The notes under the pieces are model-generated. The model was not told the DNA's origin. It worked only from the letters and a program-made list of their open reading frames with translations, and did no database searches. A stretch of 64,000 nucleotides of DNA from the NCBI RefSeq assembly GCF_963921235.1, contig NC_086097.1, positions 114,702,001-114,766,000 on the forward strand, in the 5' to 3' direction. This stretch comes from Mobula hypostoma. Lineage: Eukaryota. Both the position numbers and the translations under genes were made by a program. Below, one piece after another: positions 1 to 46,809 of this stretch; the first letter of the stretch is position 1, and every line of letters starts with the position of its first letter.

Positions 1-1165
1 GAAGCTGTGAGATATCATCGGCAACCCCTGCGTCGGGCGGCAAGGACTCGGCTCAGTTCACTTCCAGAAGTGGGGAAGTGCAAGCATAAGGAACAGGGGA
101 GACATGGTACAGGCAGAAGTACGGATCCGTGAGGAAGAGAAGCGGATTTCAAAGGCAGTGGAACGAGGACCCCAGGGTGCCTGGACAAAATGGGATCTGC
201 CCAAGCGCAAGACCTCATGAGCAGAGTTATGGAGACTGGAGCCCTTCCGTATTTCCTTCCTCTTGCGATCCGTGTATGACACCCTTCCTTCGCCATTACA
301 TCTGTATACATGGGGGATGAGAGAGGACCCGATCTGTAAGCTCTGTGGTCAAAAGGGGACACTGGCTCATATACTGTCCGGGTGTAAAACAGCTCTAACT
401 TAAGGGCGGTATAGGTGGCACCATGATAAGGTGCTTCTGGCTCTTGCTGACACACGAGAGCGGGAGAGATGCAAGAAGAGGACGGCTGGCACAGATTTGA
501 GGAAGGCCATCACCTTCATCAAAGAGGGAGCTAGGCCTTTCGTAATCAAACAACCAAAGCCCAATCTGCTGCTAATGGCCAGGTCCTGGGAGATGAGAGT
601 TGATGTGGGAAGGAGGTTGCAGTTCCCGGATGTGCTGCACATAACCCTACACCCGGACATTGTACTGTGGTCAACCGAAGACAAGAAAATAATTCTGGTC
701 GAGTTGACTATGCCGTGGGAGGAGGGATGGGAAGAGGCCCACGAGGGAAAGGCCTGGAAGTACCAGCCCTTAGTGCAGGAGTGTAAAGACAAGGGATGGC
801 AGGCATGGTTGTTCCCTGTGGAGGTCGGCTGCAGAGGTTTCCCAGCCAAATCAGCATGGTGGTTGTTGTCAGATCTGGGCCTGGACGAAAGGAGCGAAAA
901 ACAAGCAGCTCATAGGATGGGGGAAGAGGCAGAATGAGCTTCTTGTTGGACTTGGAGTAGGCGAGGGGAGGAAAGCTGGAAGCCAGGAGCAGACGGGCAG
1001 TGATTTGGCCACCACTGCCGGCCCACCAAATGAAGAGTGTCACGGTTAAGGGTCGAAACACTCTGTGAAGGTTGGGAATCACCTGATGACATCTGCTCCT
1101 GGCTGAAGGCTACGGTTACCTTATAAGGTATCTGGAGAATGCACCCTAACAGGTGTATGTAACAA
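1..1165 (+). mobile_element. HERO-like (RLE-type, R2/NeSL group) non-LTR retrotransposon, 3' part, decayed
   Basis: Frame 2 reads QGAWTKW...SFLLRSVYDTLPSP, CCHC knuckle CKLCGQKGTLAHILSGC (335-385), RYRWHHDKVL, and RLE motifs HPDIVLWS/IILVELTMPWE/KYQPL/PVEVGCRGF. In-frame stops at 8, 218, 401 and 935. Confidence 0.88.
1034..1094 (+). ncRNA. Candidate pseudoknotted hammerhead-like RNA in HERO 3' UTR
   Basis: GAGTGT-C (1035-1041) pairs with (GAA)ACACTC (1055-1063); AATCAC-CTGATGA (1077-1089). The same layout occurs in the second HERO copy. Confidence 0.4.
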
Positions 1166-15325: not shown

Positions 15326-15890
15326 GCAATGGAATGTGGATTGGATTCATGCATATGTAGACAATCAGTTAAGTGCCTGTTTTCTGGTCTGCCTGGACTA
15401 CATCTTAAATGTAATCTTCAATTCATATTCGAATCTGAAGGCTGGTTAGTGGCTGAAATCAGTTAAGTTATTTGCTATATGTGCTAACCCCATAAAACAC
15501 TCTAACAACCTAATCAACCTTTCCTTATAATTCAGATCCTCAAATCCTGGCAGTATCCGTGTAGATTTTCTGTTTCAAGAAGCCTGATGAAAATATTTAC
15601 CAACATTGAACATGCAGCACCTTCCTCTTTTTTGAAATCTATTCAGAGTGTCACATAACCTCCTTTAGACCAAAATGTACCCTGTAAACCACATTCACAT
15701 ACCTATTTTATTACCAACCTGAATCCAATACACTTTATTCCATTGGTGTTAGGGTGAAGGTTAGGGTTAAGAATTTCTAGAAACCTCTTGAGTAATGGCA
15801 GTCTCACTAATCCCGATGCCTGACAACAAATTTCTCTCATAATCAGGCTGTTTTGCATCACATAAAAGTTTGTGCGGTTCACAGAACATA

Positions 15891-16452
15891 CGGTCAGTGC
15901 CCACTTTATTAGATACCTCCTGTACCTAATAAAGTGGCCACTGAGTGTATGTCCGTGGGCTTCTGCTGTTGTAGCCCGTCCACTTCAAGGTTTGATGTGT
16001 TGTGTGTTCAGAGCTGCTCTTCTGCACACCACTGTTGTAATGTGTGGTTATTGGATTACTGTTACCTTCCTATCATCTTAATCCCATCTAACAATTCTCT
16101 TCTGACCTCTCTCAATAATAAGGTGCTTTCACTCACAGAATTACCGTTCACTGGACATTTTTTTGTTTCTCGTGCTATCGTCTGTAAACTCTAGAGATCG
16201 TTGTGCATGAAAAGTCCCGGAGATCTGCAGGTTTTGAGATACTCAAACCACCCCATCTGACACCAACAATCATTGCATGGTAAAGTCAGTCAGATTACAT
16301 TTCTTCCCCATTCTGATGTTTGGTCTGAACAACAACTGAATCTCTTGACAATGTCTGCATGATTTTATGCATAGAATTACTGCAACGTGATTGGCTGATT
16401 AGATACTTGTGAGTAAGTGTACAGGTCTAACTAATAAGGTGGCCACTGAGTA
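15891..16452 (-). mobile_element. Tc1/mariner deletion derivative with terminal 57-bp TIR-TIR micro-element
   Basis: TIR C(A)CTCAGTGGCCACTTTATTAG, TA flanks; inverted homologue of 18749-19301. Confidence 0.85.
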
Positions 16453-16615
16453 TAAATTCAGTTTTCTGAAGAGTGATTAAAAACTTGATGTAAACATGAT
16501 AGTGGGAAATTCTGACTCAATTCAAGGGGTTTAATTTTACAAAGCAAACATAACAAACAGATAAAGTTGGAAATGACCTGCAGGTCACGCAGCAATTAAT
16601 TTTGGCTAAGATCAT

Positions 16616-17091
16616 GATGGTGAGATATATCCTAGGATGCACTAGGATAGATCATCAGCAATGTAACCTGGGGTCATAAGGTTTTCAGGTCTTTCAACAT
16701 CAGACACTCTCAGCCAGGCAACCAGCCAGGGTTGATCTGGCCCTGGCTTGTGTCCCAGCAGCACTGGTCCACGGGTCACATCTCTTGACCCGTAGCCATC
16801 TGGAGGCTCGCTCAGCAGCCTCTGTGACAGACCTGATGGCTCTTTCCTTTGCAGACCCCTCTAGAGACTGTTGTGCATGAAAAGAAGAGAGTAGATTCTG
16901 CACAGTGAGCAGCCAGAAAAACCTCTCCACCCCACCTCCATAGGCTCACATCATGCCCTCCACCCCATCTCTGCCACTGCTCTACCAGCTCCTTGTATTT
17001 GGCTCAAATGCCTCCTCAATACGGGCTCCACAAGGAACTGTCAGTTCTACCATGACCTCCTGCTTCAAGGTTTCTGACAAAATAATTGCAA
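16616..17091 (-). mobile_element. HERO-like LINE, 5'-truncated, second family, 23-bp TSD
   Basis: VMVELTVP..RIEEAF, EPMEVG, EAAERASRWL; TSD CAATTAATTTTGGCTAAGATCAT (16593-16615) / CAATTAGTTTTGGCTAAGATCAT (17092-17114). Confidence 0.88.
16647..16710 (-). ncRNA. Candidate pseudoknotted hammerhead-like RNA in second HERO 3' UTR
   Basis: Minus strand GAGTGTC-TGATGT-TGAAAGACCT-GAAAAC...ACATTG-CTGATGA; TGATGT can pair with ACATTG. Confidence 0.38.
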
Positions 17092-17695
17092 CAATTAGTT
17101 TTGGCTAAGATCATTAGTATCTAATGAAAAGGATGTGCAAGCATTTCTGAATTGCCTGTTTAAAGATACCTTCACGGAAATATTCTCACACAAATTATTT
17201 AAAAATTACTGACCTATAGTGTTATTTGTTAAAAAGCAGTGGAATATTGTGGTACAATGTCTGATATCTACAATCATCTGGGAACTGAAAGTCGATCAAT
17301 AATTAACTGAGTATCGCAGGTAGTCAAGAGAGAGTGTTGAACAGTCTTTTGTAGAAAGCGTGCCAAACAAGTGTCTGTCATAAAGTCTGATCAAGCTGAG
17401 AGTGTTAAACTGCCTTTAGTAAGCCACAGTGATGTGGATTAAACTACCTCCATCCACTTAATTTCTTGGTCTGCTAATCAAATTCAGTAATACTGGCAGC
17501 AAAGATAACAAGAAAAAGCTGGCAAAAATGTTGGACCTCTGCTGAAAAATTGGCAATGCTTTCTATAGTAGGGAGCTTGGTATTGTGCAGAGCATAGGTC
17601 TATCCCATGATGGGATTTTACGGGGCTGTTTCTACATTTGCACAGAAAATTCTCTTGTTTGCTGTTTTTTTAAAATCTGCGTGGTTAGTCAAATC

Positions 17696-18385: not shown

Positions 18386-18748
18386 CAAAACTTGCTCTCC
18401 ATTGCTTCAGAAAACATGTTCTATGCAACTTTATGATGCAATTAACACCTATTATACCCTTTCAGACTAGATACATGTGTTGACAATATGCAAAGTACAG
18501 TGCTCAGAAGTGATCCCTCTGTTAAGAGAATTCTGTTAAAATGGAGTTCACAGCATAAAGATGACATCAGATGTTTTACTGAAACTTCATCTAGGCAACT
18601 GAGTCATAGTTAATGTCAAACAAGGAACAAAAGCCATAAAAATAACTCCTTTCACAGATGAGTCATGGATGAATCATAGAACCATTAAAATGATGGCACA
18701 TATGGAGACCATTTAGCTCAGTGTCTATACTGGACGTAAATGAAGATA

Positions 18749-19301
18749 CAGTCAGTGGCCACGTTATTTGGTACACCTGTACACCTGTAATTAATGCAAA
18801 TATCTAATCATCCTCTCATGTGGCGGCAACTTATTGCATGAAAGTAAGGAGACATGGTCAAAAGTTTCTGTTTTGTTCAGACCAAATATCAGAATGGGGA
18901 AGATACCTGATCTGTGATTTTGACTGTGGAATGATTTTTGGTGCCGGGGGGCGGGGTTGAGTATCTCAGAAACTGCTGATCTCCTTGGATTTTCATACAC
19001 AACAGCCTCTAGAATTTACAAAGAATGCTACAAAAAGCAAAAAGGCACCTAGCGAGCGGCAGTTCGGTAGGCAAAAATGCCTTGAGAGATCAGAAGAGAA
19101 TGGCCAGATAGGTTCAAGCTGACAGGAAGGAGGTAGTAACTCAAATAGCCATATGTTACAACAGTAGCAGAAGAGCATCTCTGAATGCACAACATATTGA
19201 CCCTTGAACTAGATGGGCTACAGCAGCAGAAGACCATGAACATACACTCAGTGTCCACTTTATTAGGCACAGGAGCTACCTAATAAAGTGGCCACTGAGT
19301 G
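18749..19301 (+). mobile_element. Tc1/mariner deletion derivative with terminal 57-bp TIR-TIR micro-element
   Basis: Same TIR as 15891-16452; transposase N-terminus remnants DFDCGMIFGA, SISETADLLGFS and MGYSSRRP; micro-element at 19245-19301. Confidence 0.88.
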
Positions 19302-19959
19302 CATTTAACTTAATTCCACTTCAGCCTCCAGCCCATAACCCTGCCTTTCAAATGCTCATCCAGGTATATTTTCAATCAGCTGAAAGTTTCTACCTCCACC
19401 ATCCTTTCAATGCAATGAATTTCAGACTTCCGCTGTTCTTTCAATGAAAAATAATTTCCTCAATTCTACTCTAATCCTTTGACCAATTACATAATTCAAG
19501 GCTTGCGAGTTTTCGTTTTCTATTTCTCTGGTAAATAGATGCTTGCATTCCTTCTGTCATCTCAATTTTTTCTACACTTGAATTAGAATTACTCTCCGCC
19601 TCGTTTTTTTTTCTAGAATTTTAGTGAAATAATTTGCTTGAATCATTCACATTAAATCAAATGGGCCGTAATACAATTCACCCTATGCACCTTGACAGAA
19701 TCCTACCAATTATTGTGTGTTCCATTACCTCCTCAAATACAATTCCACACAGTAACAACTTAATTCCTTTTGCCATTTTTATGCTGATCTTATCAATATC
19801 TTTGAGCAACCTGATTCTTCGAGATGGTACCAGTGAACAACGTGACCAGTGGTGATGTCCTGCAGACAATTCACAAAACTACGTCTTTTACTTCTCCTTT
19901 CAAGTATGATTCTACTACGAAGCTGCGTGTGATCGAAACCTGTGATTTACATTTTGATG

Positions 19960-27767: not shown

Positions 27768-29677
27768 CTATTGAGGAATATTGGGAAGCAAGAAAGGAGC
27801 TTAAGAAGGGGCTGAGAAGAGCAAGATGGGGGCATGAGAAGGCCTTGGCGAGTAGGGTAAAGGAAAACCCCAAGGCATTCTTCAACTATGTGAAGAAAAA
27901 AAGGATGACAGGAGTGAAGGTAGGACCGATTAGAGATAAAGGTGGGAAGATGTGCCTGGAGGCTGTAGAAGTGAGCTAGGTCCTCAATGAATACTTCTCT
28001 TCGGTATTCACCAATGAGAGGGAACTTGATGATGGTGAGGACAATATGAGTGAGGTTGATGTTCTGGAGCATGTTGATATTAAGGGAGAGGAGATGTTGG
28101 AGTTGTTAAAATACATTAGGACAGATAAGTCCCCGGGGCCTGAATATTCCCCAGGCTGCTCCATGAGGCGAGAGAAGAGATTGCTGAGCCTCTGGCTAGG
28201 ATCTTTATGTCCTCGTTGTCCACGGGAATGGTACCGGAGGATTGGAGGGAGGCGAATGTTGTCCCCTTGTTTAAAAAAGGGTAGTAGGGATAGTCCGGGT
28301 AATTATAGACCAGTGAGCCTTATGTCTGTGGTGGGAAAGCTGTTGGAAAAGATTCTTAGAGATACGATCTATAGGCATTTGGAGAATCATGGTCAGATCA
28401 GGGACAGTCAGCATGGCTTTGTGAAGGGCAGATCGTGTCTAACAAGCCTGATAGAGTTCTTTGAGGAGGTGACCAGGCATATAGATGAGGGTAGTGCAGT
28501 GGATGTGATCTATATGGATTTTAGTAAGGCATTTGACAAGGTTCCACATGGTAGGCTTATTCAGAAAGTTAGAAGGCATGGGATCCAGGGAAGTTTGGCC
28601 AGGTGGATTCAGAATTGGCTTGCCTGCAGAAGGCAGAGGGCAGTGGTGGAGGGAGTACATTCAGATTGGAGGATTGTGACTAGTGGTGTCCCACAAGGAT
28701 CTGCTCTGGGACCTCTACTTTTCGTGATTTTTATTAACGACCTGGATGTGGGGGTAGAAGTGTGGGTTGGCAAGTTTGCAGACGACACAAAGGTTGGTGG
28801 TGTTGTAGATAGTGTAGAGGATTGTCAAAGATTGCAGAGAGACATTGATAGGATGCAGAAGTGGGCTGAGAAGTGGCAGATGGAGTTCAACCCGGAGAAG
28901 TGTGAGGTGGTACACTTTGGAAGGACAAACTCCAAGGCAGAGTACAAAGTAAATGGCAGGATACTTGGTAGTGTGGAGGAGCAGAGGGATCTCGGGGTAC
29001 ATGTCCACAGATCCCTGAAAGTTGCCTCACAGGTGGATAGGGTAGTTAAGAAAGCTGATGGGGTGTTAGCTTTCATAAGCCGAGGGATAGAGTTTAAGAG
29101 TCGCGATGTAATGATGCAGCTCTATAAAGTTCTGGTTAGGCCACACTTGGAGTACTGTGTCCAGTTCTGGTCACCTCACTATAGGAAGGATGTGGAAGCA
29201 TTGGAAAGGGTAAAGAGGAGATTTACCAGGATGCTGCCTGGTTTAGAAAGTATGCATTATGATCAGAGATTAAGGGAGCTAGGACTTTACTCTTTGGAGA
29301 GAAGGAGGATGAGAGGAGACATGATAGAGTTGTACAAGATAATAAGAGGAATAGATAGAGTGGATAGCCAGCGCCTCTTCCCCAGGGCACCACTGCTCAA
29401 TACAAGAAGACATGGCTTTAAGGTAAGGGGTGGGAAGTTCAAGGGGGATATTAGAGGAAGGTTTTTTACTCAGAGAGTGGTTGGTGTGTGGAATGCACTG
29501 CCTGAGTCAATGGTGGAGGCAGATACACTAGTGAAGTTTAAGAGACTACTAGACAGGTATATGGAGGAATCTAAGGTGGGGGCTTATATGGGAGGCAGGG
29601 TTTGAGGGTCAGCACAACATTGTGGGCTGAAGGGCCTGTACTGTGCTGTACTATTCTATGTTCTATGTTCTGTGTTC
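27768..29677 (+). mobile_element. CR1 LINE, 5'-truncated, inserted in Gypsy pol
   Basis: ORF 28046-29605 carries an uninterrupted RT (DFSKAFDKV, GVPQGSALGP, KFADDTK); (TTCTATG)n tail at 29654-29677. Confidence 0.95.
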
Positions 29678-39226: not shown

Positions 39227-42200
39227 CATAGAAACATAGAAACATAGAAAATAGGTGCAGGAGTAGGCCATTCGGCCCTTCGAGCCTGACCGCCATTTAT
39301 TATGATCATGGCTGATCATCCAACTCAGAACCCAGCCTTCCCTCCATACCCCCTGATCCCCGTAGCCACAAGGGCCATATCTAACTTCCTCTTAAACACA
39401 GCCAATGAACCGGCCTCAACAGTTTGCTGTGGCAGAGAATTCCACAGATTCACCACTCTCTGTGTGAAGAAGTTTTTCCTAATCTCGGTCCTAAAAGGCT
39501 TCCCCTCTATCCTCAAACTGTGACCCCTCGTTCTGGACCTCCCCAACATCGGGAACAATCTTCCCGCATCTAGCCTGTCCAATCCCTTTAGGATCTTATA
39601 CGTTTCAATCAGATCCCCCCTCAATCTTCTAAATTCCAATGAGTACAAGCCCAGTTCATCCAGTCTTTCTTCATATGAAAGACCTGCCATCCCAGGAATC
39701 AATCTGGTGAACCTTCTTTGTACTCCCTCTATGGCAAAGATGTCTTTCCTCAGATTAGGGGACCAAAACTGCACACAATACTCCAGGTGTGGTCTCACCA
39801 AGGCCTTGTACAACTGCAGTAGTACCTCCCTGCTCCTGTACTCGAATCCTCTCGCTATAAATGCCAGCATACCGTTCGCCTTTTTCACCGCCTGCTGTAC
39901 CTGCATGCCCACTTTCAATGACTGGTGTATAATGACACCCAGGTCTCGTTGCACCTCCCCTTTTCCTAATTGGCCACCATTCAGATAATAATCTGTTTTC
40001 CTATTTTTGCCACCAAAGTGGATAACTTCACATTTATCCACATTAAATTGCATCTGCCATGAGTTTGCCCACTCACCCAACCTATCCAAGTCACCCTGCA
40101 TCCTCTTAGCATCCTCCTCACTGCTAACACTGCCACCCAGCTTCGTGTCATCCGCAAACTTGGAGATGCTGCATTTAATTCCCTCATCCAAGTCATTAAT
40201 ATATATTGTAAACAACTGGGGTCCCAGCACTGAGCCTTGCGGTACCCCACTAGTCACCGCCTGCCATTCTGAAAAGGTCCCGTTTATTCCCACTCTTTGC
40301 TTCCTGTCTGCTAACCAATTCTCCACCCACACCAATACCTTACCCCCAATACCGTGTGCTTTAAGTTTGCACACTAATCTCCTGTGTGGGACCTTGTCAA
40401 AAGCCTTTTGAAAATCCAAATATACCACATCCACTGGTTCTCCCCTATCCACTCTACTAGTTACATCCTCAAAAAATTCTATGAGATTCGTCAGACATGA
40501 TTTTCCTTTCACAAATCCATGCTGACTTTGTCCGATCATTTCACCGCTTTCCAAATGTGCTGTTATCACATCCTTGATAACTGACTCCAGCAGTTTCCCC
40601 ACCACCGACGTTAGGCTAACCGGCCTATAATTCCCCGGTTTCTCTCTCCCTCCTTTTTTAAAAAGTGGGGTTACATTAGCCACCCTCCAATCCTCAGGAA
40701 CTAGTCCAGAATCTAACGAGTTTTGAAAAATTATCACTAATGCATCCACTATTTCTTGGGCTACTTCCTTAAGCACTCTGGGATGCAGACCATCTGGCCC
40801 TGGGGATTTATCTGCCTTCAATCCCTTCAATTTACCTAACACCACTTCCCTACTAACATGTATTTCAATCAGTTCCTCCATCTCACTGGACCCTCTGTCC
40901 CTTACTATTTCTGGAAGATTATTTATGTCCTCCTTAGTGAAGACAGAACCAAAGTAATTATTCAATTGGTCTGCCATGTCCTTGCTCCCCATAATCAATT
41001 CACCTGTTTCTGTCTGCAGGGGACCTACATTTGTCTTTATCAGTCTTTTCCTTTTTACATATCTATAAAAGCTTTTACAGTCCGTTTTTATGTTCTCTGC
41101 CAGTTTTCTCTCATAATCTTTTTTCCCCTTCCTAATTAAGCCCTTTGTCCTCCTCTGCTGAACTCTGAATTTCTCCCAGTCCTCAGGTGAGCCACTTTCT
41201 CTGGCTAATTTGTATGCTACTGCTTTGGAATTGATACTATCCCTAATTTCTCTTGTCAGCCACGGGTGCACTACCTTCCTTGATTTATTCTTTTGCCAAA
41301 CTGGGATGAACAATTGTTGTAGTTCATCCATGCAACCTTTAAATGCCTGCCATTGCATATCCACCGTCAATCCTTTAAGTGTCATTTGCCAGTCTATCTT
41401 AGCTAATTCACGACTCATACCTTCAAAGTTACCCCTCTTTAAGTTCAGAACCTTTGTTTCTGAATTAACTATGTCACTCTCCATCTTAATGAAGAATTCC
41501 ACCATATTATGGTCACTCTTACCCAAGGGGCCTCTCACGACAAGATCGCTAATTAACCCTTCCTCATTGCTCAAAACCCAGTCCAGAATAGCCTGCTCTC
41601 TAGTCGGTTCCTCGACATGTTGGTTCAAAAAACCATCCCGCATACATTCCAAGAAATCCTCTTCCTCAGCACCTTTACCAATTTGGTTCACCCAGTCTAC
41701 ATGTAGATTGAAGTCACCCATTATAACTGCTGTTCCTTTATTGCACACATTTCTAATTTCCTGTTTAATACCATCTCCGACCTCACTACTACTGTTAGGT
41801 GGCCTGTACACAACTCCCACCAGCGTCTTCTGCCCCTTAGTGTTACGCAGCTCTACTCATATCGATTCCACATCTTCCCGGCTTATGTCCTTCCTTTCTA
41901 TTGCGTTAATCTCTTTTTTAACCAGCAACGCCACCCCACCTCCCCTTCCTTCATGTCTATCCCTCCTGAATATTGAATATCCCTGAATGTTGAGCTCCCA
42001 TCCCTGGTCACCCTGGAGCCATGTCTCTGTGATCCCAACTATATCATAATCATTAATAACAATCTGCACTTTCAATTCATCCACCTTATTACGAATGCTC
42101 CTTGCATTGACACATAAAGCCTTCAGGCGCTCTTTTACAACTCTCTTAGCCCTTTTTAATGCTTGCCCTGGATTTGTCGGCCTGCCACTTTTACTTTTCC

Positions 42201-45389: not shown

Positions 45390-46636
45390 TGTAGTCATAG
45401 TCATAGTCATACTTTATTGATCCTGGGGGAAATTGGTTTTCGTTACAGTTGCACCATAAATAATAAATAGTAATAGAACCATAAATAGTTAAATAGTAAT
45501 ATGTAAATTATGCCAGTAAATTATGAAATAAGTCCAGGACCAGCCTATTGGCTCAGGATGTCTGACCCTCCAAGGGAGGAGTTCTAAAGTTTGATGGCCA
45601 CAGGCAGGAATGACTTCCTATGACGCTCTGTGCTGCATCTCGGTGGAATGAGTCTCTGGCTGAATGTACTCCTGTGACCACCCAGTACATTATGTAGTGG
45701 ATGGGAGACATTGATCAAGATGGCATGCAACTTAGACAGCATCCTTTTTTCAGACACCACCGTGAGAGAGTCCAGTTCCATCCCCACAACATCACTGGCC
45801 TTACGAATGAGTTTGTTGATTCTGTTGGTGTCTGCTACCCTCAGCCTGCTGCCCCAGCACACAACAGCAAACATGATAGCACTGGCCACCACAGACTCGT
45901 AGAATATCCTCAGCATCGTCCGGCAGATGTTAAAGGACCTCAGTCTCCTCAGGAAATAGAGATGGCTCTGACCCTTCTTGTAGACAGCCTCAGTGTTCTT
46001 TGACCAGTCCAGTTTATTGTCAATTCGTATCCCCAGGTATTTGTAATCCTCCACCATGTCCACACTGACTCTCTGGATGGAAACAGGGGTCACCGGTACC
46101 TTAGCTCTCCTCAGGTCTACCACCAGCTCCTTAGCCTTTTTCACATTAAGCTGCAGATAATTCTGCTCACACCATGTGACAAAGTTTCCTACCGTAGCCC
46201 TGTACTCAGCCTCATCTCCCTTGCTGATGCATCCAACTATGGCAGAGTCATCCGAAAACTTCTGAAGATGACAAGACTCTGTGCAGTAGTTGAAGTCCGA
46301 GGTGTAAACGGTGAAGAGAAAGGGAGACAAGACAGTCCCCTGTGGAGCCCCAGTGCTGCTGATCACTCTGTCGGACACACAGTGTTGCAAGCACACGTAC
46401 TGTGGTCTGCCCGTCAGGTAATCAAGAATCCATGATACCAGGGAAGCATCCACCTGCATCGCTGTCAGCTTCTCCCCCAGCAGAGCAGGGCGGATGGTGT
46501 TGAACGCACTGGAGAAGTCAAAAGACATGACCCTCACAGTGTTTGCTGGCTTGTCCAGGTGGGCGTAGATAAAAGACATGACCCTCACAGTGCCCACTGG
46601 CTTGTCCACGTGGGTGTAGACATGACCCTCACAGTG
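45390..46636 (-). mobile_element. Young Rex1/Babar LINE, 5'-truncated
   Basis: Uninterrupted 380-aa ORF (DFSSAFNTI, GAPQGTVLSP, KFSDDS); AATAAA plus (TATGAC)n tail at about 45390-45418. Confidence 0.93.
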
Positions 46637-46809
46637 CTGGCTGACGTGGAAGTGTGAGCACTCAACAACTCCTGCAACAGCAGGTGGCCTTCTGCACGTT
46701 GGACGCCCAATTAATCTGCCCCACATTCAATCAGCTACGTGTGCGCTTGCCACATTCTCGCAACGGACCCGATGTGAATCGAATCGGGATAGTTTTCAGC
46801 TGTGGTCGC

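Follow-up and report, generated by a model that had tools for sequence, protein, structure and literature searches.

The closest described relatives of the RNA fold reported here are the hammerhead ribozymes of types SGC and CSG, in which the blocks bearing the cleavage site, GAAA and CUGAnGA follow one another in the same cyclic order as here, stems I to III are crossed around the same invariant core, a short linker joins stem I to stem II, and an extra helix connects the free sides of these two stems (Eckert et al. 2023, PMC10085705). Type-SGC ribozymes cleave in vitro at 0.007-0.19 per minute. In the portion of that study drawn on here, the known hammerheads are said to leave no more than one or two additional nucleotides between CUGAnGA and its neighbouring stems, the hosts are metatranscriptomes, metagenomes and one bacterium, and the main text names retrotransposons only in the title of a reference. 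Within the literature searched, mostly open-access and partly available as excerpts, the term 'type-SGC' was found only in Eckert et al. and no description of the present motif was found; inventories of Hero elements, such as that of Fell et al. 2025, and Repbase may bear on its novelty.

Three further systems share parts of the picture, as far as the accessible parts of their sources describe them. The pseudo-LTRs of Penelope-like elements carry type I or minimal dimeric hammerhead motifs in GIY-YIG elements, with one extra base reported at the A9-G10.1 step, and Cervera and de la Pena (2014) proposed a circular-template model for them (PMC4209133). R2 and other RLE-type LINEs have a single ORF with reverse transcriptase (RT), CCHC finger and restriction-like endonuclease, and a structured 3' UTR beside the start of reverse transcription (PMC10499050, PMC13580325, PMC4640811), with the ribozyme of R2 being HDV-like and located at the 5' end (PMC3774820); R2 protein is capable of template jumping in vitro. 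Lastly, the pseudoknot (PK) hammerhead shows that the core tolerates rewired peripheral helices, but its A9 is still followed by G10.1-C11.1 and it has no four-way junction (Zhan et al. 2024, PMC11300833).

The window, a 64,000-nt stretch of the Mobula hypostoma genome, contains two copies of such a fold, each behind the remains of a LINE protein. The elements show the features of RLE-type LINEs (a single ORF with RT and CCHC finger, 5' truncation and target duplication), and they may belong to the HERO clade, the name used in the earlier sequence-only reading, a clade that the papers found do no more than list. Copy 2, on the minus strand, is a 5'-truncated RLE-type LINE insertion of 472 nt (16616..17087), consisting of a decayed endonuclease C-terminus and the 3' UTR. 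It lies between the upstream (17088..17114) and downstream (16589..16615) copies of a 27-nt target-site duplication identical at 25/27 positions, which is long by the standards of LINEs. Before the motif is reached, the insertion translates as an RLE-type LINE protein C-terminus with stops and frameshifts, the C-terminal domain being presumably a PD-(D/E)xK-like endonuclease. At 80% likeness in four runs, contig depth is at single-copy level outside about 16617-17091, and in contigs of the same runs aligned to 16560-17120 the family extends past 17083. Copy 1, on the plus strand, belongs to a second family and spans 1-1170; its motif words follow an ORF remnant (1..1000) with zf-RVT and RLE regions and in-frame stops that runs off the window start, and at the protein level it is related to retrotransposons of fish, lancelets and molluscs.

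A sequence-only reading of copy 2 had pointed to the minus-strand words GAGTGTC (16709-16703), TGATGT (16702-16697), GAAA (16686-16683), ACATTG (16664-16659) and CTGATGA (16658-16652) as a hammerhead-type motif repeated from copy 1 with a covarying stem I. These words are present at those positions, stem I of copy 2 pairs at six of six positions including two G-U pairs, and the wider analysis bears out a conserved hammerhead-type motif with a covarying stem I. In copy 1, by contrast, only four of the six stem I pairs hold as they had been written. The shared 24-nt spacing from GAAA to CTGATGA is real in both copies, but its equality is incidental, since copy 2 has lost one stem III base and the start-to-start distance ranges from 22 to 29 across 31 families. 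Three further helices, here called X, Y and V, had gone unmentioned.

Taken together, sequence and covariation give the strand order X5'-Y-II5'-V5'-III5'-NUH-I5'-linker-II3'-GAAA-III3'-V3'-I3'-CUGAnGA-X3', in which stems I, II and III all cross one another and no spacer separates A9 from X, X from Y or Y from G10.1. On the minus strand of copy 2, the 5' strand of helix X (16749..16758) falls within the last codons of the family ORF and pairs with 16651-16642 once three majority family letters are substituted. Hairpin Y, of 8 bp (16724..16748), lies flush between this strand and the G10.1-side 5' strand of stem II (16720..16723), which has lost one base and changed another and was read from relatives L057, L034 and L039 and from family contigs. 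There follow the 5' strand of helix V (16713..16719), the counterpart of the SGC/CSG helix of stem I-II interaction; block S (16697..16709), with the 5' strand of stem III, predicted cleavage after C17 (16703) and the 5' strand of stem I; block G (16679..16691), with the 3' strand of stem II, GAAA and the 3' strand of stem III, from which one base is deleted; the 3' strand of helix V (16666..16672); block C (16652..16664), with the 3' strand of stem I and CUGAUGA; and the 3' strand of helix X (16642..16651), with three mismatches. The same fold occupies 981..1104 on the plus strand in copy 1, with helix X at 981-995 and 1090-1104, hairpin Y at 996-1019, stem II at 1020-1024 and 1050-1054, predicted cleavage after 1041, GAAA at 1055 and CUGAUGA at 1083.

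Relatives were retrieved by protein only, with an alignment of RLE regions as query, and comprised 79 metagenome loci, from the best 80 of 258 confirmed stretches and thus biased towards copy 1, together with three further loci in prokaryotic assemblies that are probably host DNA; among viral contigs, none of the 42 pattern matches to the protein proved to be a relative. ORFs of 1123-1180 aa in three relatives contain RVT_1, two contain zf-RVT, and there is a weak match to R2 structures. A strict descriptor, which requires CUGAnGA and RAAA, scores six helices and forces part of the C3-G8 core, fitted 64 of these 82 loci and both window copies, placing copy 2 and L042 in the wrong register. Eleven of the 18 unfitted loci end within 176 nt of the protein match, so that among the loci of this sample with more than 176 nt downstream the motif is present in 64/71 (strict) or 68/71 (relaxed). 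Four of the seven remaining misses fit with a variable C3 or A9 or a longer window, L062 has a decayed C block and could not be refitted, and neither L069, with 373 nt available, nor L076 contained the motif under strict or relaxed settings. The tail of L076, which is nested among motif-bearing families, lacks hammerhead words and is instead a different, strongly folding sequence (about 1300-1610) that runs directly into a 5' UTR and matches nothing in Rfam; this sequence might act as a substitute ribozyme or as a fold for docking. After removal of copy 2 and L042 for their register and of the partial fits L002, L009, L012 and L082, 60 fits formed 32 families with a mean identity of 57%; L047 was left out of the 31-family counts, and both L047 and L071, which have short 3' ends, out of the alignment.

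In the MAFFT alignment, which has 31 rows, pairing holds in 87.3% of its 1153 cells, as compared to 60.1% in shuffles and 32-46% in slid registers, with the proviso that rows were cut and columns chosen from descriptor fits, which favours X and Y, and that the shuffle keeps relatedness. In the same alignment, 36 of 38 pairs vary on both sides. Each helix has its first pair formed in 30-32 of 31-32 families, and every one of the four Watson-Crick types is represented across positions; the first four pairs of stem I, with changes on both sides, are found in 30-31 of 32 families, and A15.1-U16.1 opens stem III in 32/32. Helix V pairs in 91.9% of cells and all five of its pairs vary on both sides. 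The bases before GAAA pair with the strand right after hairpin Y in 97.4% of cells, and this upstream-strand stem II is closed by G10.1-C11.1 directly before G12 in 30/32 families, whilst those that follow CUGAnGA covary with the X strand lying upstream. When the junction was optimised anew on a constant 3' half, a family's own upstream sequence scored 55.3 on average, as against 32.9 for that of other families and 28.6 for shuffled sequence, and the own-median score was reached by 0/248 shuffles and 3/248 swaps. These data argue that the tail fold is a conserved six-helix RNA with a full hammerhead core in rearranged order.

G10.1 is linked to A9 neither directly nor by one or two nucleotides, helices X and Y intervening between them, so the fold matches none of the six described hammerhead permutations. 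Relative to SGC/CSG, block C is split, the G10.1 strand lies upstream, X and Y are inserted and both termini of the chain lie in X; an autonomous LINE of animals serves as host, and cleavage has been observed for SGC/CSG whereas the LINE fold is known from sequence alone. It nevertheless appears to be a member of the pseudoknotted SGC/CSG hammerhead class, whose block order it shows when read round through X, opened at a point for which no description was found in the literature searched. We consider it very likely, as a structural model, that the additional helices form a four-way junction outside an otherwise normal core, in which X would stack on Y, and A9.G12 on G10.1-C11.1. In at least 13/32 families the 5' strand of X reaches into the last codons, and in many X is confined to the UTR; because the overlap with the ORF is thus limited to some families, a translation-coupled switch was rejected as a general role.

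We aligned contigs from four runs to 16560-17120 at 80% likeness, depths being summed contig depths rather than copy numbers. At no position do many molecules start or stop in these runs, which, consisting of contigs, have no bearing on cleavage. Among the rows listed for run X1, the majority letters at 16659 (1189/1290) and 16660 (1084/1290) replace the two G-U pairs of stem I by Watson-Crick ones, and those at 16650, 16648 and 16644 (each 87-89%) restore helix X. A base inserted behind 16682 (531/1432, with 66 loose ends reading likewise) restores stem III, and an insertion behind 16721 together with the loose-end consensus at 16722 restores the upstream strand of stem II. Position 16708 is split 51/49 in the family, one state mismatching stem III unless its partner changes outside the rows listed, and the stem II 3' base 16687 does not appear among the substitution rows listed. 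Majority family letters mend most of the breaks. The proposal that a family consensus would settle the state of the stems holds for stem III, which is restored, and for stem I, which becomes fully Watson-Crick; stem III, called degenerate, has lost a base in copy 2 and is whole in family letters. For stem II the same description is incomplete: the true, upstream strand is damaged in copy 2 and restored in the consensus, but in no family does stem II form in the ordinary position after CUGAnGA. Relatives L057, L034, L039, L050 and L055, 64-74% identical to copy 2, carry the whole fold, of which copy 2 is a dead remnant.

Like the Penelope-like hammerheads, this motif sits in the terminal repeat of an autonomous retroelement that forms head-to-tail partial tandems, includes a U3-A8 variant and invites a circular template (PMC4209133); unlike them, it is a pseudoknotted monomer and its element is a LINE of RLE type. 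With 13 loci as seeds, a 5' UTR profile found 26 matches, 22 with upstream sequence, and in 21 of these 22 element starts a tail is joined flush upstream, a fraction that may be inflated, as most of the head-to-tail contigs are short-read assemblies in which a terminal repeat can route tail to head. In this respect the LINEs are unlike R2: their starts carry a tail copy. The 5' UTR pattern had no match in the prokaryotic or viral collections, which thus added no anchored junctions. All 3' ends lie at a fixed place, about 90-140 nt beyond the site. Three own-type junctions are anchored in unique flank: the stump of L078 starts 43 nt after the site, that of L061 minus about 30 nt after it by family spacing, and L061 plus has no stump. 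The contig of L036 starts at the second base after the site, and the stumps of L001, L034 and L052 begin upstream of it, at contig edges.

Several side observations concern the element ends. The 5' starts of L001, L003, L034, L036, L078 and others share a conserved 5' UTR motif common to very distant families, comprising short inverted repeats CTGG..CCAG and then CCAGTGAC..GGAAAG. In L003:1-1550, an element of a different family (70% identical over 1482 nt) lies flush tail-to-head in front of a full-length element, pointing to insertion into the ends of elements or to jumps from one RNA to another. Most loci lack a poly(A) tail and have a TGTAT-like word some 10 nt short of their fixed 3' end; in the window this word occurs at 16620-16632 (minus) and 1153-1160 (plus), and it is a candidate signal for the start of reverse transcription.

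By analogy with the circular-template model of Penelope, which predicts an intact motif in every 3' end and a variable tail stump before the 5' UTR, the tail-before-head arrangement and the intact 3' motif are what such a cycle would produce. In it, head-to-tail transcripts running through two tails would be cut at both sites into unit RNAs, the cut ends would be ligated by the ribozyme or a host ligase into a circular template, and reverse transcription would start about 90-140 nt beyond the site, where the tail has its fixed end, and could go round the circle more than once. The 87 nt that copy 2 retains between the predicted site and the downstream duplication had been taken to mean that the inserted RNA was uncleaved, which does not follow, since a religated or end-joined template leaves the same DNA. 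Several points weigh against the cycle: the cut pieces would stay joined by about 25-35 bp (X, II, V, III), an obstacle to the strand exchange on which circles depend, all 3' ends keep the motif uncut, and L076 has the same head-to-tail junction without the motif, which weakens the link between motif and junction. We regard the prospects as evenly balanced that the rearranged hammerhead cuts head-to-tail transcripts into units that are rejoined as circular templates.

The strongest alternative keeps the same active hammerhead and dispenses with circles: the ribozyme of an upstream copy would free the next element's 5' end from read-through RNA, and the element's own cut tail would stay annealed, to be crossed by a template jump or to regulate translation or stability. 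It draws on the same core conservation, on the stumps of L078 and L061 minus lying downstream of the site, on the L036 contig and on the template jumping of R2 protein in vitro as reported in the accessible part of the literature, and the X 5' strand over the last codons would suit a regulatory role in part of the families. However, none of the stumps that are anchored in unique flank has its first base exactly at the site, those of L001, L034 and L052, which lie at contig edges, start farther upstream, and X being wholly UTR in many families means that translation coupling is not general. The anchored stumps, lying after the site or absent, fit a linear cut RNA or template jumping equally well; overall we consider this alternative unlikely, if worth keeping in view. 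The fullest form of the circular reading, in which HERO-type LINEs across aquatic animals would have an active seventh-topology hammerhead, circularise their RNA and always insert more than one unit, is one to which we commit only tentatively, at somewhat short of an even chance.

Both the circular and the linear reading suppose that the fold cleaves. The hammerhead core (C3 U4 G5 A6 N7 G8 A9 with G12 A13 A14) is found with the strict words, which themselves force part of C3-G8, in 64/71 loci, and G12 in 31/31 families. Deviants are U3 in L053 and L068, U3-A8 in L052 and A12 in five fits, and L062 and L079 show single-copy core decay. In 64 fits position 17 is A in 20, C in 22, U in 22 and G in none, and by family the H of the NUH triplet is A in 8, C in 12, U in 11 and G in none of 31, an absence of G with a probability of about 1e-5 if families were independent, which, being related, they are not. 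Position 7 takes all four bases, and positions 7 and 17 both vary within clades of the protein tree. C3-G8, described as a base pair of the active hammerhead core in the sources at hand, is replaced by U3.G8 in L053/L068 and by U3-A8 in L052, which is a related family and keeps a 1165-aa ORF intact; the latter swap, seen in a single contig, could reflect CpG decay. This pattern looks like that of a working hammerhead, and intact copies probably self-cleave after the NUH triplet.

A further alternative is that the fold does not cleave and instead gives the element's reverse transcriptase a place to dock, comparable to the R2 3' UTR core and perhaps hammerhead-derived, with the stumps arising from template jumping alone. 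It lies where R2 has a protein-binding element, every inserted 3' end carries the motif whole and uncut, L076 has head-to-tail junctions without it, and the break between A9 and G10.1 is without precedent in the literature searched, as far as its accessible parts go; two helices between CUGAnGA and stem II, where the limit of Eckert et al. is one or two nucleotides, could spoil the core. Against docking, the helices are compatible with a ribozyme as soon as stem II is drawn from the upstream strand, which is paired at 97.4% with a G-C closing pair before GAAA, and a binding site would not be expected to reproduce a free position 7, the lack of G17 and a 3-8 swap. We thus judge docking rather improbable and continue to favour an active, rearranged hammerhead.

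Searches across the window and outside it bear on whether the words might be fortuitous. Two instances of the bare word order in 64 kb, set against a mean of 0.64 and a maximum of 4 in 100 shuffles, are not beyond chance by themselves. A profile that draws on 29 other families and excludes both window copies matches exactly copies 1 and 2 in the window (E 7e-20 and 1e-11), the next match being at 0.77. Outside controls gave at least 157 exact bare-word matches (37 viral and at least 120 prokaryotic); those listed score 60 or less except for one at 84, whilst 64/66 LINE fits score 69 or more, and the sole high match listed is 80% identical to a LINE tail. L147, a 2.6-kb contig of a bacterial MAG, has a motif-only tail without ORF that is 80% identical to L048/L049; it probably represents either host DNA that was binned with the MAG or a derivative that is not autonomous. 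Rfam covariance models gave no hammerhead match up to E 5 in the window and 10 loci. Elsewhere in the window, palindromic repeats at 15886-15952 and 19240-19306 match mir-9256 weakly, far below the gathering score, with further copies near 18743 and 60501, and are probably a MITE-like repeat; ordinary RT-bearing LINE remnants lie at 27980-29605, 39325-41856 and 45584-46726, one with an endonuclease domain.

We give very little credence to an ordinary type-SGC hammerhead with stem II after CUGAnGA, or to plain UTR homology with chance words: the order of blocks S, G and C is that of type SGC and, with one bulged base, the first pair of the rival stem forms in 19/31 families, but its subsequent pairs form in only 10-19 of 30, the 10.1-11.1 pair in the ordinary position exists in 3/31 families, 45.8% of cells pair there, which is the level of the slid controls, the bases concerned covary with the upstream X strand instead, and chance words are excluded by the outside control, the covariation and the 29-family profile. 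A classic stem II with zero, one or two extra bases was likewise rejected on pairing counts.

As read from its conservation, the fold appears to be genuine and clade-wide, and to represent a new topology within a ribozyme class that is already known. If the fold cleaves, hammerheads that are not circularly permuted would be a clade-wide part of an animal LINE rather than rarities of metatranscriptomes, and CUGAnGA need not adjoin stem II, so that standard searches would miss such motifs, as Rfam does. The A9-G10.1 junction would then offer a new attachment point for engineered ribozymes, and the long-proposed circular-template model could be tested with a short RNA and a single protein. For the elements themselves, cleavage would mean that an RLE-type LINE has gained a 3' ribozyme and a Penelope-like cycle.
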